Source of the DNA: Promethearchaeota archaeon
GTDB lineage: Archaea > Asgardarchaeota > Lokiarchaeia > Sigyniarchaeales > SOKP01
Assembly: GCA_016839555.1 (NCBI GenBank)
Contig: JAEOUA010000010.1
Location: 160,001 to 224,000, forward strand
Direction of reading: 5' to 3'
DNA length: 64,000 nucleotides
The translations under genes were made by a program, and so were the position numbers. The notes beneath the pieces were generated by a model. It saw only the letters and a program-made list of their open reading frames with translations, ran no database searches and was not told the origin of the DNA. Shown here in pieces: positions 5,157 to 57,049 of this stretch (positions are counted from its first letter, which is position 1; each line of letters opens with the position of its first letter).

Positions 5157-5425
5157 TTTCTAAATTTCTTTTATAATAATTCCTTATATATATGATTTCT
5201 TACCAATTTTTAATTATTATGATAATAATTCATAATATTTGTAGAAAATATTTACATTTTTTATAAGACCAATTAAATTCTAATTAATAATAATTAAAAG
5301 TTAATTTGGGAGCTGACGAAAAAACATAAAAATAACTAAAAAATGAAAACTAAATTAGATTGGAAAAGTTACAACCTATTTTATGAGAAAATAAAAACAT
5401 AATATGCTAAAAAAAATATTTTAAT

Positions 5426-5920
5426 TTAATCTCCTTGTTCAATTCTTTTCTCTAAAACGATTAAGATGGGATTAAATCCCGCTTTCGAGAAAATCTTTAT
5501 TAATTTATCTTGAGCACCATAACCAATATTTATCCTAATGGATTCACATCCCCAACTGGAGAGTATCTGGACAGCTCTATCTGCCAATATTTTCCCTACT
5601 TGCTTTCCAATATATTCTTTTTTCGTGGCCCAATTATCTAAATATCCAATATAATTCCCCAGGGTGTTTTTAACAGCTTCAAGCATTCCCATACCAATAA
5701 CTTCTCCTGTATCCTTTAGCTCCGCAATTAGAGTGATTCTTTTTAAATTTGGTTTAAATTGTCTAAGACCCGAGCTTTTTTTCCATTTTTCTTCTTCTAA
5801 CCCAATATCATATTTATCATGAAGCTGTTGGAGGATCTCGAGGGTTGCTTCATAATCAGAAGTGCGATAATTTCTAATAATAATCTCATCTTCTTCTATT
5901 ATCTCATTTTCATTAGCCAT
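5426..5920 (-). CDS. GNAT family N-acetyltransferase
   Basis: IIRNYRTSD start, EYIGKQVGKIL motif A, FSKAGF motif B. Confidence 0.75.
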   Translation of the reverse strand: MANENEIIEEDEIIIRNYRTSDYEATLEILQQLHDKYDIGLEEEKWKKSSGLRQFKPNLKRITLIAELKDTGEVIGMGMLEAVKNTLGNYIGYLDNWATKKEYIGKQVGKILADRAVQILSSWGCESIRINIGYGAQDKLIKIFSKAGFNPILIVLEKRIEQGD

Positions 5921-15606: not shown

Positions 15607-16455
15607 TTAGATATTATATTTAGGAGTTTTTAAAGTATCCCAATCAGTTGTGATAATATAGTCAGGATGATTTCTAATAAAAGTTACTGGATAATCATAA
15701 GCTGGTTCTCCAAATAAAGCTAATCTCAGAATAGTATTTGCCCAATCATAAGGGGTTCCATTTCTACAATATAATCGAATTTTTTTCGCATTAAGTATTT
15801 GTTTCATCCCTAAAGTAAAAGCTTCCTTAGGAAAATTTTCTAAATTTCCTCCAATATTAGCTCTTATTGCATTAATAGTTCTCGTATAATTGTTTAATCT
15901 AACTTTTCTTGGATCCGAATTTTCTACTCCTTCTTCTGGCTCATTAAATGCTATATGTCCATGAATACCGATTCCTCCATAACATACATCTATTCCTCCT
16001 AAATCATCAATAATATCTGCTATTTTTTCGATATTGGTTTGATTTGGGAAAATTATATGCTCTTGGTTCAAGCAACTATAATCACCTAATAGATAAAAGA
16101 ATAATTCTTTTGCTATTTTTTTAAAACTTAAAGGATGAGTATCCTCTATTGCATCTCCTTTTTTATCACAATATTCATCCATAAAAAAGAACCAGCAATT
16201 CTCCAACGAAATCATTTCTTCATTAATAATATTTGCGAGAAGTGGATATTGCCCAATAGGACCGATAGGTAAAATTAATTTACTTATTTGGTCTTTTTCA
16301 TTACTTTTTTTAATTTCCTTAGCTATATTATTAGCGAATGTTTTATATAATACATTTAAATCTTTACAAACTATTAAATTCTCTCCTGATTTATCTATTA
16401 CTTCTTGCGGGCTTAAACTTAATATACTCTTAACTTCTTCTGATCTTCTCGTCAA
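15607..16455 (-). CDS. Glucosamine/galactosamine-6-phosphate isomerase (NagB-like) family
   Basis: FFMDEY, HPLSF, GGIGIHGHIAFNEP, AFTLGMKQIL. Confidence 0.85.
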   Translation of the reverse strand: MTRRSEEVKSILSLSPQEVIDKSGENLIVCKDLNVLYKTFANNIAKEIKKSNEKDQISKLILPIGPIGQYPLLANIINEEMISLENCWFFFMDEYCDKKGDAIEDTHPLSFKKIAKELFFYLLGDYSCLNQEHIIFPNQTNIEKIADIIDDLGGIDVCYGGIGIHGHIAFNEPEEGVENSDPRKVRLNNYTRTINAIRANIGGNLENFPKEAFTLGMKQILNAKKIRLYCRNGTPYDWANTILRLALFGEPAYDYPVTFIRNHPDYIITTDWDTLKTPKYNI

Positions 16456-16461
16456 TTTAAT

Positions 16462-17238
16462 TCAATCCATCTCTAATAATTTTAAAATGTTTTTTGAAAA
16501 ATATAATTTTCTTGTATTTTCATCAATATTATAATTATCAAGCCGTATTTTATCTTGCTTTAAAATAAGTGGAATCTTAGAATAAAAAACATCTGTTCCA
16601 AATAGAAGCTTTTTAAATGCGCCCTCCCACCATAACCATTTTTTCATTCCAATATTATCTGCCCGCATGCGCCATCCATCAGGTTCTCCTGTAATATCTG
16701 AATAAATATTTGGACGCATCCTAATTAATTCAGCAGCATCTTCGTTCCAATGAACCCCTAAATGAGCTATAATTAAATTTAAATTAGGAAAGGCATTAGC
16801 AATAGGTTCTAATCGCATTGGATGCATGTTCCAGGATGAAATATTTTCTTTTTGCCCATTTTGAAAAATTGTCACTATTCCAGTATGGAATAACATTGGC
16901 ATCTGTAATTTTTCTGCTTGTTTCCATAGAGGAAAAAAAGATCTGTTATTATAAGCTTTTGTTGGAATAGAAATCTTAAGCATTTTAAAGCCTTGATTAT
17001 GTGCCTCTTCAATTTCATTTGGATTAGATCTTCCAGGACGGATAAAATAGGAACCGATTATTCTTTTCGGGTAATTTTTGAGTGCTTTTCTAACATCTTC
17101 ATTAGTTTTGCAATTAAAAATTTTTCCTAGACCACTTAAACAGCATTTATTTATTCCAAACTCATCCATAGTCTGAATTAAATTTCTCAAATAATTTGGA
17201 ACATCATAAAGATGAGCGTGAGCATCAATTATTTGCAT
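16462..17238 (-). CDS. Amidohydrolase_2 metal-dependent hydrolase
   Basis: IIDAHAH, FHTG, IAHLG, LLFGTD. Confidence 0.88.
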   Translation of the reverse strand: MQIIDAHAHLYDVPNYLRNLIQTMDEFGINKCCLSGLGKIFNCKTNEDVRKALKNYPKRIIGSYFIRPGRSNPNEIEEAHNQGFKMLKISIPTKAYNNRSFFPLWKQAEKLQMPMLFHTGIVTIFQNGQKENISSWNMHPMRLEPIANAFPNLNLIIAHLGVHWNEDAAELIRMRPNIYSDITGEPDGWRMRADNIGMKKWLWWEGAFKKLLFGTDVFYSKIPLILKQDKIRLDNYNIDENTRKLYFSKNILKLLEMD

Positions 17239-41830: not shown

Positions 41831-44599
41831 TTAGATAAAAATAGTAGATTTTTCTTCATCCGTAATATCCTCAATTTCTCGAGGCTCTCCTCTTTCTAGG
41901 AAGAAGGGATCTATTATTGCAGAGATTTGATCGAAATCATAATGTCGAGCGGTAATCGCCTTCAACCTACAAACTGCAGCGCATCGCCCGCATCCTTTAC
42001 AAATAGCAGGATTGATATACGCTTTTTTCATATCCATACTTATTTCTTCAAATTCTTTTTTCACATCTACAAGTGAAATTGCTTTAAATTGGCACGCTTC
42101 TTCACATCTTCCGCAACCATTACATTTCTCCGTATCAACAATCATATCCTTAAAATGGCATTCAATTGAAAGCAAGAATGAAAGGAATTTCAATTTATTT
42201 GTAGAAACTTGTTCTAAACTTAAGAATCTGCTTGCTCTCGCTGCTGCCCCCTTGGCTTGTGAAATGGAATCTTGAATATTTTTTGGCCATTGAGCGCATC
42301 CGCATAAGAATAAGCCATGGTTTTCAAAATCTAAAGGTCGTAATTTTGCGTGAGCTTCAACAAAAAATCCATCATCATTTATGGATACATTTAACATATC
42401 TGCTAGAGAATCTAAATCATTAGATGGCACCATGGGAGCTGATAATATGATAAGGTCTGTACCAAATTCAAGAAAATGCTCCGGATTATGATAATCTCTT
42501 AATTTAATCGTATATCTTTCAGGATCATCTCCAGTTTTAATAATTTCAGGGATATTTTGAGGATTATATCTTACAAAATTTGCGGTTTTATTGTTTTCAT
42601 TGAAAAAGTCTTCAAAATCTTTTTTCGCTGTATGCAGATCTCTATAAAATACTAACATTTGAAGATCGGGTTTGATCTTTTCTAATATATTAATATTTTT
42701 GATAGTGTTGCTACAACATATATTTGAACAATATGAAATTCCACCTTCATGTCGTGCTCCTACACACATTATGGTAGTAACGTGATGAATGTCTTTTAAC
42801 CACTCATAAGAACCTGTTTTGAGTTTTTGTTCTAATTCTAATTGAGTTATAATATTTTTATTTCCCTCACCGTAGGAATAGAGACCTTTTGGCTTATATT
42901 CTTGACCCCCTGTCGCAATGATAACGGTTCCAACATTTAATTCTAGCGGTTCTGGTTTGGAATTATTGACAAAAGCTACATAATTCCCAATTGAACCAGA
43001 TATTTGTTCAATCTTAGAATCTAATAGAACTTCAATATTAGTATTGTTTATGATTTTTTCTTTAATATTTTCTAAAAATTTGCTTGCTTTCTCTTCAATG
43101 GGATAAATTACATTCAGATTCTTTAAAATCCCTCCTAAACTTTCAGTTTTTTCTACGATATACGTTTTATATCCTTGGTTTGCAATATTTAGTGCTGCCG
43201 TCATTCCTGAAATACCTCCCCCAATTACCAATGCTGAAGGAGTAATTTCGATAATCTCTTCTTTTTTAGTAAGATCAATCTGTTTTCTTTTGATTTGAGT
43301 ATACTTAACTGAACTTAATAAATTAGCGATTTGTGAGGCTACTGCGCTCGCATCTGCAACCGTCTCAGAAATGTCCATCGGACTCTGACAATACCCACAT
43401 AAATAAATTCCATCCTTAGAAGAAAGTGATTTATCAAAGTAAGATCTTTCTTGATAGAAGCCGTATTTATCTAATTTAATTCCTAAAATTTTTGCTAATT
43501 TTTTTGTACCTGCAGAATATACAAGTGGAGCAGCTAATACAACCATATTCGCGAGAAATTCCTTTTTTTCACCAGTACCTAGATCTTTATAATTTATAAT
43601 TAAATCTTTTGATTTTGGAATTTCTTTAATATCATAGATTTTTGCTTGAAAATAGGTTACATTATGTTGCTTTTGAGCTTCTTTAGCATATTCATAGAAA
43701 TTCTTGCCAAATGCTCTAAATTTATGTCTGAATATATAAGGTTTTATATCTTCAGAATATAAATTTGTCCAAACAGCTTGATTTGCAGTATACATGCAGC
43801 AGACTCGGGAACAATAAGGGACACTTTCTTCCACATCAATTGATCCCGCACATTGGATGAAAGCAACTTTTTTCGGCTGTGTTTCATCACTTATTCTTAA
43901 TATTTGGGGACCAAATGGTCCTGTAGTACATAAAATTCTTTCATATTCTAAAGCATTGACAACATTTTTATATTGATATCCCCATCTTTCAGTCAATTCC
44001 TCCCCTAACATATCAAAACCAGTAGCAACCACTATTGCTCCCACTTCTATTTGAATCTCTTCTGGTTTTTGATCAAAATTAATAGCATCTCCTTTACATA
44101 CTTTTTTACATACTCCACATACTTGCCGGTTTATATATAAACATAAATTTGGATCTATTACATAAACAGGTGGTGTTGCTTGGGGAAAAGGAATATAAAT
44201 AGATTTTCTTTTACCTAGATTCATATCATATGGATTAGGTGCCTCTATTTTGGGACATTTAGCCGCACAATCCCCACATCCTTTGCATTTAGTCTCATCC
44301 ACATAACGAGGCTTCTTTTCTATAGTGACTTTAAAATTTCCTACTTCCCCTTTTACCTTTTTTACATTAGATAACGTAAATAATTTAATATTCGGATTGC
44401 GAAAAACTGCGATCATTTTTGGAGAAAGAGTGCATAATGCGCAATCATCATTTGGAAAAAGTTTCTCTAATTGAGCCACATGTCCTCCTATTGATGGTTT
44501 CCTTTCTACTAAATATACTTTAAATCCTAAATCTACTAAATCCAAGGAGGTTTGAATTCCTCCAATACCACCTCCAATTACTAATACAGAACCAATCAT
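41831..44599 (-). CDS. hdrA: Heterodisulfide reductase subunit A-like polyferredoxin flavoprotein (shortened duplicate of 44991..48458)
   Basis: Two GGG(I)xG FAD sites, CKGCGDCAAKCP, YCSRVCCMY, CSNICC, C-terminal 2x[4Fe-4S]; no MvhD domain. Confidence 0.88.
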   Translation of the reverse strand: MIGSVLVIGGGIGGIQTSLDLVDLGFKVYLVERKPSIGGHVAQLEKLFPNDDCALCTLSPKMIAVFRNPNIKLFTLSNVKKVKGEVGNFKVTIEKKPRYVDETKCKGCGDCAAKCPKIEAPNPYDMNLGKRKSIYIPFPQATPPVYVIDPNLCLYINRQVCGVCKKVCKGDAINFDQKPEEIQIEVGAIVVATGFDMLGEELTERWGYQYKNVVNALEYERILCTTGPFGPQILRISDETQPKKVAFIQCAGSIDVEESVPYCSRVCCMYTANQAVWTNLYSEDIKPYIFRHKFRAFGKNFYEYAKEAQKQHNVTYFQAKIYDIKEIPKSKDLIINYKDLGTGEKKEFLANMVVLAAPLVYSAGTKKLAKILGIKLDKYGFYQERSYFDKSLSSKDGIYLCGYCQSPMDISETVADASAVASQIANLLSSVKYTQIKRKQIDLTKKEEIIEITPSALVIGGGISGMTAALNIANQGYKTYIVEKTESLGGILKNLNVIYPIEEKASKFLENIKEKIINNTNIEVLLDSKIEQISGSIGNYVAFVNNSKPEPLELNVGTVIIATGGQEYKPKGLYSYGEGNKNIITQLELEQKLKTGSYEWLKDIHHVTTIMCVGARHEGGISYCSNICCSNTIKNINILEKIKPDLQMLVFYRDLHTAKKDFEDFFNENNKTANFVRYNPQNIPEIIKTGDDPERYTIKLRDYHNPEHFLEFGTDLIILSAPMVPSNDLDSLADMLNVSINDDGFFVEAHAKLRPLDFENHGLFLCGCAQWPKNIQDSISQAKGAAARASRFLSLEQVSTNKLKFLSFLLSIECHFKDMIVDTEKCNGCGRCEEACQFKAISLVDVKKEFEEISMDMKKAYINPAICKGCGRCAAVCRLKAITARHYDFDQISAIIDPFFLERGEPREIEDITDEEKSTIFI

Positions 44600-44990
44600 T
44601 TTTTAATATATCACTTTTATAATTCAAATGAAAATTATTTTGGAAAAAATATTCTTAACATCAATTAATTACTTTCTACTATTTAAATGTATCGTAAATA
44701 AATTTCGAAAAAAATAAAAAATAAAAAGAAAAGTGATCATATTAATTCATAAAATAGTATTAAGATCTCGTAATACAACAAGATCACTTCGAAATATTAG
44801 CAATAACTAACAAAAGTATTGAATTCTGATATTTAATAATTATTCATTATTGAATTCAAAAATTATGAATAAATGTTTTTTTAAAATATTAAATAATTCT
44901 CTCTAAGATTATTGTTTTAAAAAATAAGATAATAAAAACTTAAAGAAAGTATGAAAAGTGATAAATTAAAAAATGCAATTTTTTGGTTTT

Positions 44991-47900
44991 TTACTTGGTT
45001 AAAGGACCTAATTCCTTAACTTGATTAGTAAATTCTGTAATTAATTCAGCAAAACGCTTTCCTTCAGAAGCACTTACCCATTCAAGTCTAAGGCGCTTTT
45101 TGTCAATACCTAATTGCTCAATAATAATATTGTGAAGTTTTTCAAATCTTTCTTGTGCATATTCATTGCCAGAAATATAATGACAATCGCCAATATGGCA
45201 TCCACTTATAAGTACTCCATCCGCGCCGTCCTTGAATGCCTTCAAAATGAATGAGGGATCAACCCTTCCCGAACACATTACTCTTACAATCCTCATGTTT
45301 GGAGGATATTGAAACCTTGAAACGCCTGCTAAGTCAGCTCCCGCGTAAGAACACCAATTACAGCAAAAAACAAGAATTTCAGGATTGAAATATGAGTCAA
45401 TCATGGCGGAAATCTGCCCGAATTCAAACTGTCTGATCGTTATAGCACCATTTGGACAAGTCGCTGCGCATGTACCACAGCCCTTGCATAATGCGGGGTT
45501 TATGAACGATTTTTTTGTAGAAATATTGACTTCTTCAAATTCTTTAATAGAGGGGACCAGCTCTATTGCATTATATGGGCAGACGCTTTCGCATTTTCCA
45601 CAGCCAATACAATTCGTGGGATTAACTTCAGCAACTACCCCAGAGGTTTGAATTTCTTTTGCATTTAAAAAACGACTGGCTCTTCCCGCCGCACCATTTG
45701 CTTGCGAGATGGAATCTCGAATATTTTTTGGCCATTGAGCGCATCCGCATAAGAAGATTCCATCAGTTGCAAAATCTAATGGTCTTAATTTTACATGAGC
45801 TTCCAAGAAAAATCCATGCTCGTCTAAAGGTACCTTTAGCATTTTAGCTAATTCTATATTATCATATGGAACCATTGGAGTGGAAAGAACGATTAAATCA
45901 GTTTCAAATTTAAGTTTATCATGTAAATTTGTATCATATACTTCAATTTCATATTTTTCTGGTTTCTTTTTCTTTTTTTTAACTTTTGGTAAATTATCCA
46001 AATCATATCTAAGAAACATAGCATCTTTTCTGCGATTACGGTAGTATTCTTCATATTCTTTTTTGGCCATTTGAATATCTCTATAAAGTAAAACGATCTC
46101 AAGCTCTGGTTTTAGCTCTTTAAGATAATTTATGTTTTTTATGGCATTACCACAACACACATTAGAACAATAAGTAATTCCTTCTTTTTGCCGAGCATTT
46201 ACGCATAATATTGTTGTTATTCTATCGATATCATCCAGCCAAGAATAATCTTTTGATCTTAATTTCTGTTCAAGTTCTAATTGAGTTATCACATTATTAT
46301 TTCCCTGTTTATATTCAAATATCCCATGTGGCTTATGTTCTTTGGTCCCTGTCGCAACTATTATTGTGCCAATTTTTAACTCATGGATTTTATCTTTTGA
46401 ATCAATGATAGAGACATCATAATTTCCAATGTAGCCTTTTACTTCTTTTAATTGTGATCCGAGAAAAATTTCAATATTTTCATTATTTTCAATTTTTAAT
46501 TTTGTTTCATTTAAAAGATCTATCGCATCATATTCAATAGGATATAAAGAGTTTAAAAATTTCAAATTTCCTCCAAGATTCTTTTCTTTTTCAACCAGAA
46601 ATGCCTTAAATCCTTGGTTTGCAATGCTTAAAGCAGCTGTCATTCCTGAGATCCCCCCTCCAATTATTAATGCGCTAGGAGTTATTTGGATAAGTTCTTC
46701 TTTAAGGGGTTTTAATAATCTAGCTTTTGCGACTGCCATTCGTATAAGATCTTTAGCTTTTTGAGTTGCTGCCTCACGCTCATTCATATGAACCCAGCTA
46801 CACTGATCGCGAATATTAACCATCTCGAAGAGATATTTATTTAAGCCTGCTTCCTGACAAGTTTCCTGAAATAAGGCTTCATGGGTTCTTGGGGTACAAG
46901 ATGCAACAATAAAACGATTTAAATCATATTCTTGAATTACTTCCTTAATTCTCGCTTGAGAATCAGAACTGCAAGAATATAAATTATCTTCACAAAATAC
47001 CACATTAGGCAAAGTTTTTATATATTCCGCTACATTGGGGACTTCTACATATTTTCCAATATTAATCCCACAATGACAAATTAAAACTCCGATTCTTGGC
47101 TCATCTGTAATTTTTACTTCTTTTTCTTCTACTTCAATTTCTTTTTCTTTTAATTGGGTATAAGCAACGGAATTTAAAAAGGAAGCTACTTGAGATGCTA
47201 CCCCACTGGAATCAGCAACGGTTTCTGGAATATCCATTGGTCCCTCGCAAAATCCGCATAGAAAAATTCCATCTCGAGAGGATAATGATTTATTAAAATA
47301 AGACCTTTCATGAAAAAATCCATATTTATCTAATTCAATGCCTAATATTTTTCCTAATTCTCTAGTACCATGAGATGGTACTAAAGGGGTTGCTAAAACT
47401 ATTAAATTTGCCCGAAATTGTTGAAATTCTCCTGTTTTAAGATCTTCATAGTTTATTAAGATATCATTAGTTTTAGAATCTTCCTCAATAAAACTTATCT
47501 TCGTTTGAAAATATTCAACCCCATATTCTTCTTGGGCTCGTTGCGTAAATTCATAGAAATTTTTTCCATAAGCTCTAATATCATGTCGAAAGACATAACA
47601 TTTAGACTTTTCTGAATGCTCCTTAGTAATGATTGCTTCTTTTGCAGTATACATACAACAAACGCTGGAACAATAAGGTATACCTTCATGTAAATCTCGA
47701 GATCCCGCACATTGGATGAATGCTATCTTTTCTGGTTCCTTATGATCACTTGGTCTTAATACATGCCCTTCGAAGGGTCCGGAAGCGCAAAGAATTCTTT
47801 CATATTCTAATGCAGACACTACATTTTCATATTGATAACCCCATCGGTGTGATAATTCTTCTCCAAGCATATCAAATCCAGTAGCTACTACTATTGCACC

Positions 47901-48458
47901 TACTTTTATATCAAATATCTGAGGCTTCTGGTCAAAATCAATAGCTTCTGCTTTACAAACTTTACTACATACTCCACATACATCTTTAGTTAGCTTTAAA
48001 CATAATTCAGGATCTATTACATAAACTGGCGGTACTGCTTGGGGAAAAGGAATATAGATCGATTTTCGCTTTCCAAGATTCATATCAAAAAGATTAGGAA
48101 CCTCTATCTTCGGGCATTTTGCTGCGCAATCGCCACATCCCTTACATTTTGTTTCATCCACATAGCGCGGCTTTTTTAAGATTGATACTGTAAAATCTCC
48201 TGCTTTACCTTTTACTTCTTTAACTTCATGATAAGTTAAAAGCTCAATATTCTGATTACGAAAAACTTCCACCATTTTTGGCGCCAGAATACAGAGTGAG
48301 CAGTCATTTGTGGGGAATGTTTTGTCAAGTTGAGCCATTCGTCCCCCAATAGAAGGAGATTTCTCTACTAAATATACTTTAAAACCTAATTCAGTCAAAT
48401 CTAAAGAAGTTTGAATCCCAGCTATGCCACCACCTATAACCAGTACCGAGCCTTCCAT
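44991..48458 (-). CDS. hdrA: Large HdrA (double HdrA/HdrL-type) fused to C-terminal MvhD, all-Cys form
   Basis: DKTFPTNDCSLCILAPK, ICHCGINI, ASCTPRTHE, NIRDQCSW; MvhD tail FCCNWCSY, MCSGRV, GCHIGDCHY, WVSASEG. Confidence 0.93.
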   Translation of the reverse strand: MEGSVLVIGGGIAGIQTSLDLTELGFKVYLVEKSPSIGGRMAQLDKTFPTNDCSLCILAPKMVEVFRNQNIELLTYHEVKEVKGKAGDFTVSILKKPRYVDETKCKGCGDCAAKCPKIEVPNLFDMNLGKRKSIYIPFPQAVPPVYVIDPELCLKLTKDVCGVCSKVCKAEAIDFDQKPQIFDIKVGAIVVATGFDMLGEELSHRWGYQYENVVSALEYERILCASGPFEGHVLRPSDHKEPEKIAFIQCAGSRDLHEGIPYCSSVCCMYTAKEAIITKEHSEKSKCYVFRHDIRAYGKNFYEFTQRAQEEYGVEYFQTKISFIEEDSKTNDILINYEDLKTGEFQQFRANLIVLATPLVPSHGTRELGKILGIELDKYGFFHERSYFNKSLSSRDGIFLCGFCEGPMDIPETVADSSGVASQVASFLNSVAYTQLKEKEIEVEEKEVKITDEPRIGVLICHCGINIGKYVEVPNVAEYIKTLPNVVFCEDNLYSCSSDSQARIKEVIQEYDLNRFIVASCTPRTHEALFQETCQEAGLNKYLFEMVNIRDQCSWVHMNEREAATQKAKDLIRMAVAKARLLKPLKEELIQITPSALIIGGGISGMTAALSIANQGFKAFLVEKEKNLGGNLKFLNSLYPIEYDAIDLLNETKLKIENNENIEIFLGSQLKEVKGYIGNYDVSIIDSKDKIHELKIGTIIVATGTKEHKPHGIFEYKQGNNNVITQLELEQKLRSKDYSWLDDIDRITTILCVNARQKEGITYCSNVCCGNAIKNINYLKELKPELEIVLLYRDIQMAKKEYEEYYRNRRKDAMFLRYDLDNLPKVKKKKKKPEKYEIEVYDTNLHDKLKFETDLIVLSTPMVPYDNIELAKMLKVPLDEHGFFLEAHVKLRPLDFATDGIFLCGCAQWPKNIRDSISQANGAAGRASRFLNAKEIQTSGVVAEVNPTNCIGCGKCESVCPYNAIELVPSIKEFEEVNISTKKSFINPALCKGCGTCAATCPNGAITIRQFEFGQISAMIDSYFNPEILVFCCNWCSYAGADLAGVSRFQYPPNMRIVRVMCSGRVDPSFILKAFKDGADGVLISGCHIGDCHYISGNEYAQERFEKLHNIIIEQLGIDKKRLRLEWVSASEGKRFAELITEFTNQVKELGPLTK

Positions 48459-48461
48459 TAT

Positions 48462-49691
48462 TTATTTTACCTCGATATGTTTTATGATAAATTCAATAAA
48501 ATCCATAATCTTCACATCAGCTAAATCAGGAAAATCATTCTGAACACAAGTTAGATGAATATTACACTTTGGACATGATGTTAACATGAGGCTGGCAACT
48601 TCTTTTGCTTCTAACATTCTTTTATATCGTAATGCTTTAGATTTTTCATTACAATTCATCCAACAACTCACACCACAACATAACGAATTTTTTTGATTGT
48701 GCACCATCTCTTTGAAATCATATCCTAAAGTTTTAAAAGCATTAAAAATTTCTCTTGATTTTTCTATAATTTTATTTTCTTTTGGCAAAAATCTGCTTAA
48801 GCGACAAGGATCATGAAAAGTGAATTGAATTTTTTCTTCTTTTTCATTAGGATGGGCAAATTCAATCGTCTCGTTTTTCCAATTATCATATACATATTCA
48901 ATTATATGTTTTACTTCATATTTTTCTTCAAAATCATCAAAAATTTGAGTATAATCCACTTTGAAGGTCCTATAGCATTCTGCACATGCAGTAATAATGG
49001 TTGAAACTTGGGCCTCCTCGAATTTTTTTAAATTCTTTTTTCCTAACTCTATAAATTCATCGATCTCACCTTGCCCCCAATAAATATCATGTCCACAACA
49101 CATCTCATCCTCTAACACAACAATGGGATTATCTTCGACTTTGCATAATAATTGTAAAGTACTAATCGCTATTTCATCTAATCCTTGAAATTCAAATTTA
49201 AAAAAAGGTAAGCACCCCACAAAATACAATATTTCTCCTTTTTGAGATGTTTTACACTCTTTTGGGATCCAACTTAGATCTCTCTTTGGGCGAATAGAAT
49301 ATTGGCTCATAATTTCAGGAATAGAAGTATAAATGCCTTTATGAGCAATCAATTCTTCGGGATTTTGTTCCTCTTCTTTTCTCATTTTATATCGTGCAAT
49401 TCGAACCACATCAGCAAAATTAATTTCCATAGGACAATTTTGCAGGCAGCTGTTGCACGTCAAGCAATCCCATAAGACTTTACTTTTAAGTACTTTTTCT
49501 TCAAAACCTTCTAAAATAAGTTGGATTATTCTACTTGGCGGATATTTCTCAACTTTACTTAATTGACACACACTACTACAGCGTCCGCATTGATAACATT
49601 TTTTTAATAAATCTCTTAACTCAGAACTATATACTTTCTTTTTGAAAACAATGTCTTGCTCTTTGTCTGTAATTTTTTTTGACTCGGTTAT
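48462..49691 (-). CDS. HdrC/HdrD-like Fe-S oxidoreductase with CCG domains; probable ATA start at 49691
   Basis: The in-frame extension restores CYQCGRCSSVC, which the 49571 call cuts; CLTCNSCLQNCP, CCG, HDPC, CCG, CPKC. Confidence 0.85.
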   Translation of the reverse strand: MTESKKITDKEQDIVFKKKVYSSELRDLLKKCYQCGRCSSVCQLSKVEKYPPSRIIQLILEGFEEKVLKSKVLWDCLTCNSCLQNCPMEINFADVVRIARYKMRKEEEQNPEELIAHKGIYTSIPEIMSQYSIRPKRDLSWIPKECKTSQKGEILYFVGCLPFFKFEFQGLDEIAISTLQLLCKVEDNPIVVLEDEMCCGHDIYWGQGEIDEFIELGKKNLKKFEEAQVSTIITACAECYRTFKVDYTQIFDDFEEKYEVKHIIEYVYDNWKNETIEFAHPNEKEEKIQFTFHDPCRLSRFLPKENKIIEKSREIFNAFKTLGYDFKEMVHNQKNSLCCGVSCWMNCNEKSKALRYKRMLEAKEVASLMLTSCPKCNIHLTCVQNDFPDLADVKIMDFIEFIIKHIEVK

Positions 49692-49693
49692 TC

Positions 49694-50836
49694 TTACTCA
49701 CGCCCTAATTTATAATTGTCTTGAATCCCCATTTTTTTTAAAAATTCTAAATAACGCTTAATTTTATTTTTCGCAAAATTATTAATAAGATCCCTCATTT
49801 TTTCTTGTTTAGCTTCCCCCAAGTCCACACAATCAAAAATATCGCTTTCTTTTGCTTTAGTAAATATTTTTTGTCCTTTCTCTGTTCGTGGGATCACAGT
49901 TGTAAATTTATCTTGAGAACCTAATCCCCCAAAAGAAATATCGGCATATATATTTGTAAAATCACTACATGCGTTACATGCAGTCCGCATATAATCATTT
50001 AAATGATTAAATGGTAGATGGATTGTTCTTTTGTTGTTGTCCTCATCGTGTATCTTGAAGATTAAATCTTCTTTAATATTTATCTTTTCTACCTGTTTTA
50101 AATTTATATTAAAATCTTTTTGGAATTTCTCAATTTGAGCTTTTTCAAAAAAGAAATTTTCATAACAAAATAATCCTAAACATACTTCAATATTTTGTGA
50201 AGGAGTAACTCCTAAAGCTTGCATACATCTTATGGTATATATTTGACAAGGAGTCCCCACCACAGCTAATTTTTTAAATTTATAATGATTTAATTTTGGG
50301 ATGGAATGCGTATAAGTAGAGAACTTCTGAACCTCATTCAATTGAGTAGAAATATCTAAAGTGGCTCCAGAAGCTTTAATTAAATCCTCTTTATTATAGG
50401 CAATTGCGGATTCCCTTGAAAAAGGGCTCTCCATTTTTGCCACAATCGCACCATCAATAATATTTTCTTCAATTAAAAAATTAATTAATGAATTTACAAC
50501 TCCTCCATCTGTACCAACTTCTAAAAATTTACTGTCTTTAGATTGACAGGAATATATTTTGTCGTAATGTCCGATTGGCATTTCATGAAAATCTAAACTT
50601 TTATAGGTAGTATCAAGTTCTTCATGCAGATAATGGGTTTGGGGGCAGATCACGTAGCAAATCCCACATTCGAGACATTTATCTTTATTAATATATTCTG
50701 GAGGAGCATTAGGTTTTGTAAAACCTATAACATCATATTCTGCCGAGCTGCAGAAGGAAACGCACCCTCCACATTCTTGGCAAATACCTTTATCATGAAC
50801 TTCAGTAATTAAATCTTCAAAAGTTTTTGGACTCAT
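49694..50836 (-). CDS. Coenzyme F420 hydrogenase/dehydrogenase beta subunit (FrhB/FdhB/FpoF family)
   Basis: 2x[4Fe-4S] N-terminus, DGGVV, VVGTPCQ, GLFC, CNACSD, ADISFG. Confidence 0.9.
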   Translation of the reverse strand: MSPKTFEDLITEVHDKGICQECGGCVSFCSSAEYDVIGFTKPNAPPEYINKDKCLECGICYVICPQTHYLHEELDTTYKSLDFHEMPIGHYDKIYSCQSKDSKFLEVGTDGGVVNSLINFLIEENIIDGAIVAKMESPFSRESAIAYNKEDLIKASGATLDISTQLNEVQKFSTYTHSIPKLNHYKFKKLAVVGTPCQIYTIRCMQALGVTPSQNIEVCLGLFCYENFFFEKAQIEKFQKDFNINLKQVEKINIKEDLIFKIHDEDNNKRTIHLPFNHLNDYMRTACNACSDFTNIYADISFGGLGSQDKFTTVIPRTEKGQKIFTKAKESDIFDCVDLGEAKQEKMRDLINNFAKNKIKRYLEFLKKMGIQDNYKLGRE

Positions 50837-50853
50837 AATAAAATAAGATTTTT

Positions 50854-52362
50854 TTATTCATTTTTATTTAATTCAATAGATTTTGCTTTATTTCTTTTAC
50901 TTCCACCAATTCTTTCTACAAGGAATTGCCCAGGTTTAACTTCTGTTAGTTTTTTAAATTCTATTAACCCCGCTTTTACTGCCCCCTGAAATATTTCTTC
51001 TCCCGCCTTAGATCGTATAATAACTGCAGATGATCCACCAGGTGCTCCAATTGATCCCACAGAAATGTCTGCATATTCTGAGGTTAAATCATCACAATAG
51101 TGACAAGTATCGCGAGCATAAGACTGAACATCTTTAAGTGGAACATTTTTTTCCTCTCCGTTTTTTAGATTAATAATAAATTTCCCACTATCAATATTCA
51201 TCTTGGTTAGATTGTTAATGTCTTCATTGAACTGTTCTCTTACTAGTTTAATGATATTGTCGTAAGAAAAACTTTCCATGCAGAATAATCCTATGCGATA
51301 TGTTATATTTTTAAAGAATGGAAGGCCACTGGGAAATAATTCCCCTTTTACAAGAGCGTTCATCATACAAGGAACTCCAACAAGTGCTATCCGCTCATAA
51401 TTTTTTGCTTTTTCGAGGATATTTAATGAGGGAGCGTTCGCATATTTTGTACCCGCCGTTTTATATAAGTCTTTTACATCATCTACAATTACCGGTTCTG
51501 GTTTCCATAATTTATCTGAATGTTGTACGGCAACAATCGCATCGACAAGATTATTTTTAAGCAAATATTCGAGCAAAGAAGTAACAATCCCACCGTCCTG
51601 CCTAACCTCCTTGATTTCATCCTTAGTAGTAGTGCCAGAATAAGTTTTTAGATATGCACCTATTTTTTCCGAAAATGTCAGTGAATTATCAAGCTTTTTT
51701 ATGGTTTCATATGCTCTATTCATTGAGAAAGAGCGAGGGCAAACGGTAAAACATAGGCCGCATTTCATACATTTGTCTTCATCTAATTCAAGATGATCCG
51801 CGGTAACATTGATCGCATTCACCGGACAGATTGCCGAACAAAACCCGCAATTAACACATACCCCCACCTCATCAATTATTGACACAGGTTCAAAATAATG
51901 TTCTTTGAGATCCATCTCAGTATCTTTGGCTTTATATCGATAAAAATACTCCTTTTCCTCTACGACTTTTTCTTCCCCTTTAATTGTTTTCTTTACCTTC
52001 TTGGTTTTTACTTCAACTTGCTCTTCTACATATCCTTGTTCTTTTAAATAGATTACATCTCTTATTACATTTTCTGGTGGAATATCTTTAAATTCCTTGA
52101 CAATTTCCTCTAAAAATAATGCTTCATCGATATTTTTCATTTTTTTCAGGATATATCTGCGCTCTGTTTCAGCATCAATCATGGAATCTAAAATTTCGTA
52201 ATATTCCTGTTCTGTATATTTACTACATTCTAAAATCTCATCCTTGGCCTCAAAAAAAGCTCGAATTTGAAAATTCATTGATGCTTCAAAGGTAGCGTCT
52301 AATAGATCTTTCGGGGATATTTTTTCGAATACCTTTTTATCCACTTGTTGTAGCATTACCAT
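50854..52362 (-). CDS. FrhB-family protein with N-terminal helical/winged-HTH-like extension
   Basis: CVNCGFCSAICP, CMKCGLCFTVCP, QDGGIVT, GVPC, GLFCME, CHYCDD, ADISVG; about 160-aa N-terminal domain. Confidence 0.88.
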   Translation of the reverse strand: MVMLQQVDKKVFEKISPKDLLDATFEASMNFQIRAFFEAKDEILECSKYTEQEYYEILDSMIDAETERRYILKKMKNIDEALFLEEIVKEFKDIPPENVIRDVIYLKEQGYVEEQVEVKTKKVKKTIKGEEKVVEEKEYFYRYKAKDTEMDLKEHYFEPVSIIDEVGVCVNCGFCSAICPVNAINVTADHLELDEDKCMKCGLCFTVCPRSFSMNRAYETIKKLDNSLTFSEKIGAYLKTYSGTTTKDEIKEVRQDGGIVTSLLEYLLKNNLVDAIVAVQHSDKLWKPEPVIVDDVKDLYKTAGTKYANAPSLNILEKAKNYERIALVGVPCMMNALVKGELFPSGLPFFKNITYRIGLFCMESFSYDNIIKLVREQFNEDINNLTKMNIDSGKFIINLKNGEEKNVPLKDVQSYARDTCHYCDDLTSEYADISVGSIGAPGGSSAVIIRSKAGEEIFQGAVKAGLIEFKKLTEVKPGQFLVERIGGSKRNKAKSIELNKNE

Positions 52363-52429
52363 TTTTACTTCTTTTTTCCTTTTTTAACTATTTCATTCAA
52401 CACATTTTTAAAATTATAATTATTTTTTA

Positions 52430-52503
52430 CATCCTCCCACCACGCTAAGGTTAGTCCTTTTGTACCTACAATTTTTATACAAAACTCATTCTTTTAGAGG
52501 ATG
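52430..52503 (-). promoter_or_regulatory. Eukaryote-like SECIS element in the 3' UTR of Sec-mvhD
   Basis: mRNA CAUCCUCUAAAAGA-AUGA-G-UUUUGUAU-AAAAAUUGUAG-GUACAAAA-G-GA-C...GAGGAUG: lower stem CAUCCUC/GAGGAUG, AUGA..GA kink-turn core, 8-bp upper stem, apical AAA. Confidence 0.9.
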
Positions 52504-52504
52504 G

Positions 52505-52921
52505 TTAGTTTTTTAGTCTTGCTTGATTTTCAATTTTTATAGGATTGGGTCCTAATCTCTGAATCTTCTCATGGGCGTCCTTAACACTCTTTACCAATTT
52601 ATCACCTTCAGCGGACGAGCAATAATACATATTGACTCTTTTTCCGAAACCTCTTTTTTCCAAAATTCTGTTCGCGAAATCGACATGCTCTTGTGCTACA
52701 TAATTGCCCTTGCCAAAAGCACATTCTTTTAGTCTTCATCCCACCACCATTACTCCATCAGCACCCGATTTTATCGCATATAAGATATGTTTCACATCAA
52801 CTCTGCCTGTACATCTCACTTTAATTATTCTCACAGAGGGAGTATATTTAAGCCTAGAAGTACCGGCTAAATCAGCTGCGCCGTAACCTCACTTTGTGCA
52901 AGCGAACAATATTATTTGCAT
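52505..52921 (-). CDS. mvhD: Selenocysteine-containing MvhD/VhuD (hydrogenase delta subunit), 2 in-frame UGA; alternative TTG start at 52933
   Basis: MQIILFACTK-U-GYGAADLAGTSR...RCTGRVD...GADGVMVVG-U-RLKEC...CSSAEG; UGA at 52889-52891 and 52736-52738 align to Cys of the fused MvhD (CNWC, GCH). Confidence 0.93.
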
Positions 52922-52938
52922 ATTATCATTCAATTTTT

Positions 52939-54897
52939 TTAATCACCTGCTAGTAATCCTTTAATTTCAGCATATAATTGATAATCTCGGGAATAGCGTA
53001 TATCTATTGCTTGGGTTGGGCAACAAGTCGCACAAATCCCACATCCATCGCAATTAATTTCGTCCACCACTGCTACTTCATTATCAGAAACTGTGATCGC
53101 ACCTTTCGGACATTCTTTCTCACATCGTTTACATGAGATGCAGAGATCTTCTGTCACTTCCGCAACAATCAATTCGAGATCAATTTCGCCCGCAGATGTT
53201 AGTTCAGCAACTTTACTTGCCGCTGCCCTTGCTTGAGAAACAGAATAACCAATATTTTTAGGTCCTTGTGCAAAGCCTGCGATAAAAATTCCTTTTGTCC
53301 TTGTTTCTTGTGGCATAAGACCAAAGTGAGCTTCCGTTAAAAATCCATATTTATCCACATCTAAATTTAAGACTTTAGCAATTTGTTCTGTACCTTGAGA
53401 TGGCAATACCGCAGTTGACAATACCACTAAATCCGCATCAATATTTATAATTTCATCCGTAAGGGAAGAATATACCCTAATCTTAACGTTTTTAGTTTCA
53501 GGATCTTCTCTTATTTCTCCTACTTTCCCTCGTATTAATCGTATACCTTTTTCTCTTGATCTTTGATAGTATTCTTCAAATCCCTTTTCATTTGTTCTCA
53601 TATCAATATAACATATCGATATATTCGCGTCAGGAAATTCTTCTTTTAATAATCGTGCATTTTTTAATGCTAACATGCAACATATGCCACTACAATAGGT
53701 TCTTTCAGCAGTTCTGCTCCCGACACATTGAATGAAAACAATTTCTTTTGGTTCTTTCTCATCCGATACTCTATGCATATACCCTTCAAGCGGTCCATTC
53801 GGAGCAAGCATTCTCTCAAGTTGAGCTTGATTAATCACGTTTTCAAATGTTCCATAACCATATTCATCTTCTGGTTCATAAATATCCCAACCAGTCGCAA
53901 TGATGATTGTTCCCACTTTAAAATGTACCTCTTCAGGTTTCTGAGAGAAATCTATTGCATCTAATTCGCATTCATTTACGCATGAAAAGCATTCTACACA
54001 GCAATCTCGTTTAATATCATATAAAAACGGTACTGCTTGACCAAATGCGATATCTATTGCTTTTCTAACCCCTAAATGCTCATCAAAGAAATTACTACAA
54101 TAGATAGGACATACCTCGGCGCATGCCCCACAGCCATTGCAATCATCTGTAATGAATCGCGGTTTTTTCTCAACTGTAACTTCATAATTTCCGACATAAC
54201 CTTCGACCTCCTTTACATAACTATAGCTTAGAATTTCAATGTTTTTATGTCGGTTAACTTCCAGCATTTTAGGGCCACAGATTCAGATGGAGCAATCGTC
54301 TGTTGGAAACGTTCTATCTAGCTGAGCCATGCGACCTCCTATGGTTGTTTTTTCTTCGACTAAATACACTTTTATTCCTTGGTTGGCAAGATCAAGAGCG
54401 GCATTCATGCCTGCAATACCCCCGCCTACTATGAGACAAGCCTTCTCAACAGGCACCGTTCTTATGGGGACGGTTTCAAGTCTTCTTAATCGTTCCATGC
54501 CTCCCTTTACAAGAATTTTTGCTTTTTCAGTTGCATCCTCCTTATCCTCTGTACACCAGCTACACTGCTCCCGAACATTTACCATCTGAAAAAAATAGGG
54601 ACTTAAGCCCGCTTTTTCAATAGTTTCTCTATAAATTGGTTCATGGGTAAGAGGTGTTCAAGCTGATGCGATTATACGATTTAATTTCTTTTCTTTGATA
54701 TCTTTAAGGATTTCTCCTTGGCCCGCTTCTGTACAGAGAAAGGGAGATATTTTTGATACCACCACATTGTCCAAAGTTTTGGCAAATTCTGTTAATTTTT
54801 GGCAATCTACTTTACTTTTTATATTTATACCTCACTGACAAGCGTAATAACCTATACGTTGCTCTGTATCCAATCCGTTGTTTTGATTATTATTCAT
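52939..54897 (-). CDS. hdrA: Selenocysteine-containing HdrA (652 aa), 3 in-frame UGA
   Basis: One frame from ATG 54897: RIGYYACQ-U-GINI (UGA 54832-54834), ASA-U-TPLTHE (54658-54660), DDCSI-U-ICGPKM (54283-54285). It joins ORF-track pieces 54283..54585 and 52939..54267; each UGA aligns to a Cys in the 44991 paralog. Confidence 0.93.
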
Positions 54898-55309
54898 ACT
54901 TCTTTCTATATCACCTAATCAGAATTATTTTAATTCTTAATAATTATTTTTATTAAAGTTTTTTTATTAGTTTAACTTTACATTTTTCAATAGAACTTAA
55001 CACAAATAAAGAAATTTAATCTAAAAAAGTTTAGATTTATATTAATATTCACTTCATTTATATTTGAAAAGAAAAAATTTTAAAAAAAAATTATTTCTCT
55101 CTAAAAATATTCCAAATTGACGTTAAATTTTGAATCTTGTTTTCATATAATTGTCGAATTTGTTCTAAAAATATGAATAACTCTTATCAGCCAAGGTTTA
55201 TTTAAATTTAAAAGATGGAAATATAAAATAATAAAAAAAGTTAAATTTGAAATTGTAATTGTAAAAGATAATTAGAAAGTTAAATAACAAAAAAAAAAAA
55301 AAGAAAATT

Positions 55310-57049
55310 ATGACACTTCTATTAAATCCAAAGCAACATATACGGTATTATCCCGATGCGAGATCAAAAGAGATTATGCTCAAAACTATAGAATTTTTCG
55401 AAAATAAAGGGAAAAGAAAACTTAAGGAAGATGATCACAATCATGTGTGGTATGGTGATTTTCTCGAATTCCAAAAAGAAAATATGCTTTTTGCTCATCT
55501 GTTAACTCCTTCTCAATATGGAGAGAATGAAGATTATCGATGGGATACTTGGAGAATTTGCGAATTTAATGAAATACTTGCATTTTATGGTTTAAATTAT
55601 TGGTATACGTGGCAAGTGACAATATTAGGGCTAGGTCCTATTTGGATGAGTAAAAATGAGAAAGCGAAGCAAAAAGCAGCAAAATTATTGCGAGAGGGGG
55701 CAATATTTGCCTTTGGATTATCCGAACAAGCTCATGGGGCAGATATTTACGCTACTGAAATGGCTTTAACTCCTCAAGAAGATGGAACATATAGAGCAAA
55801 TGGAGAAAAATATTATATTGGAAACGGAAATGAAGCAGAAATGGTTTCAAATTTCGGCAAATTTGCTGATAAGGAAGGAAATATCCCTCCATATGACATG
55901 AAAAATAAGGACCAATATATTTTCTTTGTAGCAAATTATAGAAATAAAAACTATGAACTAATAAAAAATATTTGCGAAAGTCAAAATTATGTAGCAAATT
56001 TTGCACTTCATGACTATCCAATTACTGAAGAAGATATTCTTTCCAAGGGAGAAGAAGCTTGGAATGCATCTCTTAATACCGTAAATGTGGGAAAATATAA
56101 TTTAGGATGGGCTTCAATAGGTATTTGTACCCATACATTTTATGAAGCGATTCATCATGCCGCTCATCGACGGCTCTATAATATGTATGTGACCGATTTT
56201 CAACATGTAAAACAGAATTTTGTCGATGCTTATACCCGTTTAATAGCGATGAAATTATTTGGATTGAGAACGGCAGATTATATGAGAATAGCTTCTAATG
56301 AGGATCGCCGATATTTACTCTATGCACCGGTTATGAAAATGAAAACGACCACTCAAGGAGAGGAAGTTATTAATTTGATGTGGGATGTGATCGCTGCGAA
56401 AGGTTTTGAAAAAGATATGTATTTTGAAGGGGCAGCAAGGGATATTCGTGCGTTACCTAAACTTGAAGGTACAGTTCACGTAAATATTGCGTTAATTTTG
56501 AAATTTATGTTAAATTTCTTTATGAATCATAAGAAATATGAAGAGATCCCTCGACAAGATCAAATTAAAGATGATACTTATTTGTTCAATCAGGGACCCA
56601 CTCGTGGGTTGGGAGCAATTCGTCTTCATGATTGGAAGCCAGCGTTTGAGCAATATAACCTACCCAATGTTAAAATATTTTTAGAACAAATTAAGATGTT
56701 TAATCTTATGGGAGTTAAAGCTACCCCAAGTGCTAAACAACAAAAAGATTTGGATTTTATGCTTTCAGGAATCGGAGAGATTTTTTCTCTTATCGTATAT
56801 GCTCATTTAATCATTGAAAATGCGAAAATCTACGAAATTGATAATGATACATTAGACCAAATATTTGATTTTTTAGTAAGAGATTTTTCTAAATATGCAT
56901 TGAATCTGTATCATAAAACTAGTACTACTCCTGAGCAGATGGAATGGTGTTTGAAGATGATTAAGAAACCCAATGTCGATCCAGAAAGATTTAATAAAGT
57001 ATGGGAAATTGTTCACTCTCTCAAGGATGCATATGAAATGAATCCATAA
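55310..57049 (+). CDS. Acyl-CoA dehydrogenase (FadE-like)
   Basis: AFGLSEQAHGAD, NGEKYYIGN, AAKGFE, LPKLEGT. Confidence 0.92.
   Translation: MTLLLNPKQHIRYYPDARSKEIMLKTIEFFENKGKRKLKEDDHNHVWYGDFLEFQKENMLFAHLLTPSQYGENEDYRWDTWRICEFNEILAFYGLNYWYTWQVTILGLGPIWMSKNEKAKQKAAKLLREGAIFAFGLSEQAHGADIYATEMALTPQEDGTYRANGEKYYIGNGNEAEMVSNFGKFADKEGNIPPYDMKNKDQYIFFVANYRNKNYELIKNICESQNYVANFALHDYPITEEDILSKGEEAWNASLNTVNVGKYNLGWASIGICTHTFYEAIHHAAHRRLYNMYVTDFQHVKQNFVDAYTRLIAMKLFGLRTADYMRIASNEDRRYLLYAPVMKMKTTTQGEEVINLMWDVIAAKGFEKDMYFEGAARDIRALPKLEGTVHVNIALILKFMLNFFMNHKKYEEIPRQDQIKDDTYLFNQGPTRGLGAIRLHDWKPAFEQYNLPNVKIFLEQIKMFNLMGVKATPSAKQQKDLDFMLSGIGEIFSLIVYAHLIIENAKIYEIDNDTLDQIFDFLVRDFSKYALNLYHKTSTTPEQMEWCLKMIKKPNVDPERFNKVWEIVHSLKDAYEMNP

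Follow-up and report, generated by a model that had tools for sequence, protein, structure and literature searches.

The 64-kb stretch of DNA analysed here (the window: contig 10, positions 160001-224000, of a Lokiarchaeial (Promethearchaeota, Asgard) genome of 3.74 Mb, 12 contigs and 29.6% GC) carries on its minus strand two adjacent genes, hdrA and mvhD (vhuD), whose reading frames are interrupted by five TGA codons. On the evidence of the sequence we consider it very probable that this is a selenocysteine (Sec) type hdrA-vhuD pair in which all five UGA codons are decoded as Sec, and that a single selenocysteine insertion sequence (SECIS) of the lokiSECIS kind, a eukaryote-like kink-turn element located directly after mvhD, is the sole cis signal for both genes. 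Such tandem HdrA-VhuD selenoprotein genes with one common lokiSECIS were described in Lokiarchaeota by Mariotti et al. (2016, Mol Biol Evol 33:2441, PMC4989117), and the description was extended to 227 Sec-utilising Asgard metagenome-assembled genomes (MAGs) by Huang et al. (2024, ISME J 18:wrae111, PMC11227280), in whose survey Asgard hdrA always has frhD/mvhD next to it, across a short spacer, and nearly all such pairs have a single eSECIS-like structure in common. The locus is therefore a further example of an arrangement already known since 2016 and not a discovery, and the original prediction, made from the sequence alone, was wrong in taking it for something hidden or new.

The genes, the spacer between them and the TGA codons, given here with the Sec reading, are the following (the paralogue is a Cys-only fusion in the same window and the orthologues are the loci described further down):

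54897..52939, minus strand: hdrA (heterodisulfide reductase subunit A, selenoprotein form), 652 codons, stop TAA, with TGA read as U; Pfam FAD and Fer4 domains
54834-54832, minus strand: TGA read as Sec22 (CQUG), N-terminal domain; Cys of CHCG in the paralogue, TGA in 66/66 orthologues
54660-54658, minus strand: TGA read as Sec80 (ASAUTP), N-terminal domain; Cys of ASCTP in the paralogue, TGA in 67/67 orthologues
54285-54283, minus strand: TGA read as Sec205 (CSIUI), the canonical HdrA Sec site next to the flavin adenine dinucleotide (FAD); Cys of CSLC in the paralogue, TGA in 67/67 orthologues
52938..52934, minus strand: intercistronic spacer of 5 nt (17 nt with the ATG start of mvhD); hdrA and mvhD are in different frames
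52933..52505, minus strand: mvhD/vhuD (FlpD family), 142 codons from TTG, stop TAA; PF02662, E=4e-43, 146.7 bits
52891-52889, minus strand: TGA read as Sec15 (Sec11 of the ATG form), CTKUG; Cys of CNWC in the paralogue, TGA in 66/66 orthologues
52738-52736, minus strand: TGA read as Sec66 (Sec62 of the ATG form), VGURL; Cys of GCH in the paralogue, TGA in 65/65 orthologues

The frames are broken under translation table 11, and translation with TGA as U recovers the five positions originally predicted (HdrA 22, 80 and 205, MvhD 11 and 62 in the ATG form). The accompanying claim that all five align to Cys in a Cys-only HdrA-MvhD fusion also holds, as BLASTP against this paralogue (1155 aa, window 48458..44991) puts every U on a Cys (CHCG, ASCTP, CSLC, CNWC, GCH); the fusion consists, however, of a double HdrA module plus MvhD, with CSLC in the first module and CHCG and ASCTP in the second. 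The closest solved relative of HdrA is PDB 9sfi_A (E=3e-203, residues 12-649 aligned), where U205 falls on the X of CAMXILAPKM, that is, on Sec197 of Methanococcus maripaludis HdrA, described as lying next to FAD in that structure (PMC13518236); the protein thus has the full-length HdrA architecture with the predicted Sec at the canonical FAD-adjacent site. For MvhD the closest solved relative is the VhuD chain 9sfi_K (E=1e-36), both U again falling on X, so that the FlpD domain (PF02662) comes with both Sec positions of the methanogen VhuD, and three of the five TGA codons coincide with Sec residues of the solved M. maripaludis chains. The remaining two, U22 and U80, lie within HdrA's N-terminal domain, as had been stated, and the suspicion that three Sec in one HdrA exceed the methanogen norm was justified, this norm being a single Sec at about position 200 (PMC4989117) and the HdrA chain of 9sfi having Sec only at the equivalent of U205. 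The idea of MvhD being a homologue of the HdrA N-terminal domain, by which Sec22 and Sec80 would correspond to the two VhuD Sec, was dropped since BLASTP gave no significant match (E=0.22).

Conservation of these codons was followed in 68 orthologous loci (numbered L031-L098, with the SECIS at about 5370-5480 in each), found by scanning prokaryotic genomes, one for each species, and encoding proteins 75-84% identical to those of the window. The named ones are nearly all labelled Promethearchaeota or Promethearchaeia, together with a few other Asgard labels or "uncultured archaeon". All five TGA codons are invariant across the 65-67 loci (about 66 species-level MAGs), which is far beyond chance. 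In the host genome TGA is at the same time an ordinary stop, terminating 250 of 1927 long frames. In the orthologues hdrA itself ends in TAA (56 loci) or TAG (10) and never in TGA, as reported for Loki HdrA, whose stop is always UAA or UAG (PMC4989117). For mvhD, by contrast, the stop is TGA in 42 of 65 loci, and 40 of these stops are at the same time the UGA of the AUGA core of the SECIS. Recoding of distant UGAs, but not of one abutting the SECIS, would be expected to leave just such a pattern, an argument already made in PMC4989117. The overlap of stop and core also implies that in these 40 of 65 loci, where helix I of the SECIS lies within coding sequence, terminating ribosomes must unfold a signal needed by the ribosomes upstream. 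The window copy escapes this overlap (seen in orthologues within L033-L098), its mvhD ending in TAA 15 nt before AUGA and its SECIS lying wholly outside the coding sequence.

HdrA codon 55 (window 54733-54735, minus strand; PFLCTEAG) encodes Cys here and in 27 orthologues and is TGA in the other 40 of 67. From this alignment, position 55 is read as a facultative fourth Sec site, with Sec in some close relatives and Cys in others, in contrast to the invariant sites 22, 80 and 205. Rare TGA codons are also seen at HdrA positions 303, 306 and 619 and, like those at position 55, they agree with the published account of Loki HdrA, in which the position of Sec varies and up to four Sec occur at five possible positions (PMC4989117).

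The genome has the main parts needed for Sec decoding, as had been suggested should be confirmed. SepSecS (494 bits) and SelD (184.8 bits) score above their cut-offs, the SelD frame being itself interrupted by one TGA (HGUSCKLG) and followed by a type-II SECIS-like element, and they are joined by a candidate tRNA-Sec with anticodon UCA and by borderline EFSec-like and PSTK-like genes, whose scores are given below where the reading is weighed. Most of this machinery is clustered (contig 5 of the host genome, 400755-408710): the candidate tRNA-Sec lies about 190 nt upstream of SepSecS and the EFSec-like gene about 5.5 kb away.

The SECIS occupies part of the 142-nt gap past mvhD. Its lower helix begins 1 nt after the mvhD stop, and its AUGA is preceded by the five TGA codons at distances of 2345, 2171, 1796, 402 and 249 nt, in good agreement with the predicted 1-2 nt and about 2.3 kb from the first UGA. 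A covariance model, R1, trained on seven SECIS elements of the host genome, was used to score it, and its parts are:

52503..52430, minus strand: whole lokiSECIS, from the fold; the core, 52492-52452, scores 49.9 bits (E=4e-9) with R1
52503-52496 with 52437-52430, minus strand: helix I, CCAUCCUC with GAGGAUGU, seven Watson-Crick pairs and a closing G-U
52489-52486, minus strand: AUGA, followed by an unpaired G (sequence and fold)
52484-52477 with 52465-52458, minus strand: helix II, 8 bp, covarying in paralogues and orthologues
52476-52466, minus strand: apical loop of 11 nt, AAAAAUUGUAG, from the fold
52456-52455, minus strand: GA, preceded by an unpaired G (sequence and fold)
52451-52439, minus strand: 3′ mini-hairpin, from the fold and from covariation

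The published lokiSECIS consists of AUGA, a stem of nine positions, an 11-nt loop starting with A's and ending with AG, and then GA (PMC4989117). The window element has the same AUGA and GA flanks, eight Watson-Crick or GU pairs with G.G at the ninth position, the 11-nt loop, and the immediate proximity to the stop codon of a UGA-containing gene. Pattern scanning, together with inspection, revealed such elements also behind six further genes of the genome that contain UGA (three more vhuD, a vhuU, a PrxL-like gene and the gene of a GCUU-motif protein). AUGA and GA are invariant across the alignment of these seven paralogous elements, for which a fixed-length core alignment was used instead of a MAFFT alignment of the 100-nt flanks that misplaced one element. 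Helix II is 100% paired in this alignment, and each of its 8 pairs shows changes in both partners, although the pairing is partly built in because most of the elements were picked by their pairing pattern; among the orthologues 99.4% of the cells are paired, in an alignment fitted to R1. Genome-wide, R1 gives nine matches, all directly downstream of UGA-containing open reading frames (ORFs): its seven training elements and two more, one after a second vhuU and one after a 123-codon ORF with one U. The Rfam SECIS families, on the other hand, have no match in the window at the gathering threshold, nor at E<=10 in 52300-55320, so that by the curated covariance model the element does not belong to RF00031 (SECIS_1); as the Rfam models miss a genuine lokiSECIS, these negative scans say nothing about a second one.

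Two of the small genes followed by such elements deserve mention in their own right. One is a 157-codon ORF with two adjacent Sec codons (PDAGCUUDKF; contig 7 of the host genome, 6060-6579, plus strand), with a lokiSECIS of 50.2 bits 1 nt later; the other is the 123-codon ORF, with its one in-frame TGA (SSETUTMAFCG), whose lokiSECIS (contig 2, 30187-30227, minus strand; 31.3 bits) is outside the R1 training set.

If one SECIS serves both genes, no other should be found in or upstream of hdrA, and the discovery of one had been named as the result that would speak against sharing. Run on the window with filters off, R1 finds nothing besides the known SECIS at E<=10 in 52505-55309, which covers hdrA, mvhD and 412 nt upstream, and its next-best match in the window, of 19.8 bits, lies outside the two genes (48662-48621). 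The same picture emerges from the 68 orthologous loci, where R1 gives exactly one strong match (34-54 bits) in 65, always after mvhD and about 0.45 kb past the end of hdrA, the other three contigs ending before the SECIS position; in or upstream of hdrA there is no match in these loci save one of 19.9 bits on the opposite strand. For consensus folding, 14 diverse orthologues were taken, and windows of 100 nt were moved across the span that begins 250 nt upstream of hdrA and ends 100 nt past the SECIS. At the SECIS the energy is -5.6 to -6.8 kcal/mol, compared with about 0 when the columns are shuffled; the shuffles are not beaten by any window in hdrA or in the 250 nt upstream, and the windows after each UGA are at about 0 kcal/mol. 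Raw energies were compared here with shuffled means, the z-scores being unusable with shuffled alignments that fold to 0 with zero variance. Within the host genome there are four Sec-type hdrA-vhuD pairs, each with one SECIS after vhuD, and R1 matched nothing beside the Cys-only hdrA paralogues.

The junction between the two genes fits with their being read from one mRNA. The gap is 5 nt with the TTG start or 17 nt with the ATG at 52921 (138 codons), precisely the range originally predicted, and TTG 52933 is the more likely start by orthology (MNDNMQIILF here and MENTMQIIMF in an orthologue). An ATG at the equivalent position begins mvhD in 45 of 66 orthologues (N-terminus ME.. and the like), and its start is 4-8 nt past the hdrA stop in 41 of 66. 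A Shine-Dalgarno-like GGTGAT lies inside the last hdrA codons of the window, and the orthologue junctions inspected have a Shine-Dalgarno motif GGAGGT(GAT) within the final hdrA codons, such a motif and a spacer of 4-8 nt being common to most orthologues. The short spacer and the Shine-Dalgarno motif in the end of hdrA support coupled translation from one mRNA, and these features and the conserved synteny point indirectly to co-transcription of both genes with the SECIS.

Taken together, hdrA and vhuD would probably be translationally coupled cistrons on one mRNA, and their five UGAs would be decoded as Sec under the influence of a SECIS acting over 0.25-2.35 kb and across a cistron boundary. 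In this mechanism the SECIS would bring the Sec-specific elongation factor, carrying Sec-tRNA(Sec), to the mRNA as such instead of to any single ORF, much like a SECIS in a eukaryotic 3′ untranslated region (UTR). This reading is supported by comparative sequence inference, and several points weigh against it. We infer the bicistronic transcript, the insertion of Sec and the factor that reads the SECIS, and SBP2 was not found in Lokiarchaeota by the account in PMC4989117. The candidate tRNA-Sec scores 45.3 bits with the Rfam tRNA-Sec model, below the cut-off of 47 bits, and ARAGORN calls no tRNA-Sec in either mode, with or without introns; the EFSec-like gene, at 237.4 bits, and the PSTK-like gene, at 160.5 bits, are likewise below their cut-offs of 242 and 290 bits. 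R1 was run on the orthologous loci with default filters, and a small or poorly aligned element could escape a consensus fold of 14 sequences in 100-nt windows. Finally, instead of standing in a 3′ UTR, the SECIS may lie within a longer operon.

Could the TGA codons simply not be decoded, the frames being pseudogenes, assembly errors or genes of products truncated at the first UGA? The broken frames under the standard archaeal table would be accounted for in this way. The original prediction had instead taken the UGAs as Sec codons, and it is borne out by their presence in all 65-67 independent MAGs, with flanking protein 75-84% identical, by their coincidence with Cys/Sec positions of solved homologues, and by the presence of Sec machinery genes and of the SECIS. 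Conservation of the TGA codons, machinery and protein identity together exclude pseudogenes and assembly errors, and we regard this explanation as effectively refuted. It is also conceivable that hdrA uses a signal of its own, be it a bacterial-style hairpin per UGA, a euryarchaeal SECIS of GAA_A type or an element in the 5′ UTR, like that of M. jannaschii fdhA, and that the element after vhuD serves vhuD only. A small or non-conserved signal could evade 100-nt consensus folding, and the Rfam negatives carry little weight here; both R1 and consensus folding are nevertheless negative across hdrA and upstream, in the window as in the orthologues, and Mariotti et al. report that RNAz found nothing in their loci either (PMC4989117), which leaves a private hdrA signal very improbable.

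Recoding may, lastly, need no cis linkage, being exerted in trans by any SECIS-bearing RNA or by a different, distal SECIS on a longer hdrA transcript. Further co-oriented genes follow close behind the SECIS, which leaves some room for this idea. Against it, every Sec-type hdrA has its SECIS about 0.45 kb downstream, after vhuD, R1 finds nothing beside the Cys-only paralogues, and the next-best R1 match in the window has just 19.8 bits, so that we see very little likelihood in it. We thus keep to one lokiSECIS acting in cis as the probable signal for both genes.

The nearest of the co-oriented genes is the following:

50854..52362, minus strand: FrhB/FdhB-like gene with a ferredoxin domain (Pfam), starting 67 nt after the base of the SECIS

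In 63 of 64 orthologous loci its counterpart follows the SECIS core on the same strand at a distance of 44-86 nt, and in the remaining locus at 156 nt; the gene may belong to the same transcript as hdrA and mvhD. An oligo-T terminator right after the SECIS was considered and rejected, as T4 or longer runs occur in 21 of 64 orthologues against a background of 11% and are absent in the window. Given this close co-oriented gene and the lack of a consistent T-run, the SECIS may sit between the cistrons of a longer operon, which would also take in the second FrhB-like gene, the CCG-domain (HdrB-like) gene and the two large Cys-only HdrA-type fusions described below.

The locus resembles that of PMC4989117 in gene order, very short spacer, an HdrA with several Sec that include the canonical one near position 200, two Sec in VhuD and the element after VhuD, and nothing essential differs; the window copy has G.G at the ninth stem position and Cys at HdrA 55. 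The UGAs of the published Loki HdrA-VhuD pairs are up to six in number and spread over about 2 kb. With the Asgard eSECIS-like type I (PMC11227280) it has the AUGA_GA core in common, and AUGA_AA variants occur among the present orthologues too. The HdrA with one Sec and the VhuD with two Sec of Methanococcales and Methanopyrus are orthologous enzymes, Sec205 corresponding to Sec197 and both VhuD Sec being shared; where the window protein has Sec22 and Sec80, however, methanogen HdrA has Cys, and the methanogen SECIS is of GAA_A type and located in the 3′ UTR. In methanogens hdrA carries a SECIS for itself, and in Lokiarchaeota this element is said to have degenerated (PMC4989117). Eukaryotic type I SECIS (RF00031; e.g., that of SelP, with its many UGAs) share with the present one the UGAN/NGAN quartet, the unpaired A's of the apical loop and a long-range action on several UGAs, presumed here and exerted in eukaryotes from the 3′ UTR over kilobases. 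They differ in that helix II of the window element is shorter, the Rfam model is blind to it, the mRNA would be polycistronic and two proteins would be served. To our knowledge SBP2 is not known for the lokiSECIS system, unlike for the eukaryotic SECIS.

Outside its core, the element has two further helices whose sequences change between paralogues while their complementarity is retained. Lower-helix examples from the paralogue flanks are CCGAA/UUCGG and CCCAU/AUGGG, and those of the hairpin ACCUU/AAGGU, AUGGU/GCCAU, AAGGU/ACCUU and UCCUG/CAGGA. When partners of helix I and the mini-hairpin are swapped, own-partner duplexes reach -10.8 kcal/mol and those across partners -8.2; a control by shuffling the flanks is weak, the C-rich and G-rich composition of the flanks re-forming pairs. 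The mini-hairpin has 3-5 bp, begins a few nt after GA, often has a loop with GCG or GCA (GCR-containing), and makes a three-helix junction with the other helices. Elements with lower helix and mini-hairpin are those of the window, of L031-L098 and of the host genome (contig and position: C6:314185, C7:15201, C7:6539, C9:63232, C10:423592, C12:203631, C12:252533 and C2:30227). The main texts of PMC4989117 and PMC11227280 do not describe this hairpin; the lower stem and internal loop are mentioned, and that of PMC11227280 has them without a conserved small 3′ hairpin. It is tempting to speculate that the SECIS of this lineage may be a three-helix unit, intercistronic in a longer hdr/mvh/frhB operon, whose extra hairpin could dock a putative archaeal SECIS-binding factor, but we hold this idea to be a doubtful one.

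Sec-type and Cys-type HdrA/MvhD modules adjoin each other in the window. Downstream of the SECIS, 41831-52362 on the minus strand is a Cys-only cluster of electron-bifurcation type with two FrhB-like genes, a CCG-domain (HdrB-like) gene, the 1155-aa double-HdrA and MvhD fusion and a 922-aa double-HdrA-like protein without MvhD. Other frames of the window that can be read through a TGA were rejected as ordinary TGA stops with short extensions. In the in-frame pair 17238..16462 and 16455..15607 (minus strand), separated by a single TGA, the amidohydrolase match is confined to the first part and no SECIS is seen nearby (best R1 match 15.4 bits); what lies at 15607-17238 is probably a pair of neighbouring genes or a single gene that is broken, and not a selenoprotein.

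In conclusion, it is unusual in recoding biology for one SECIS to serve two cistrons with up to six UGAs spread across more than 2 kb. The arrangement also bears on the origin of the eukaryotic Sec system from an Asgard ancestor, and its significance belongs to the 2016 and 2024 papers. What the present locus adds is an independent confirmation with counts: Sec codons that are invariant, one SECIS per locus, and an hdrA that never stops with UGA. For annotation, this means that hdrA and mvhD, here and in the relatives of this archaeon, are to be called full-length selenoproteins and not fragments.

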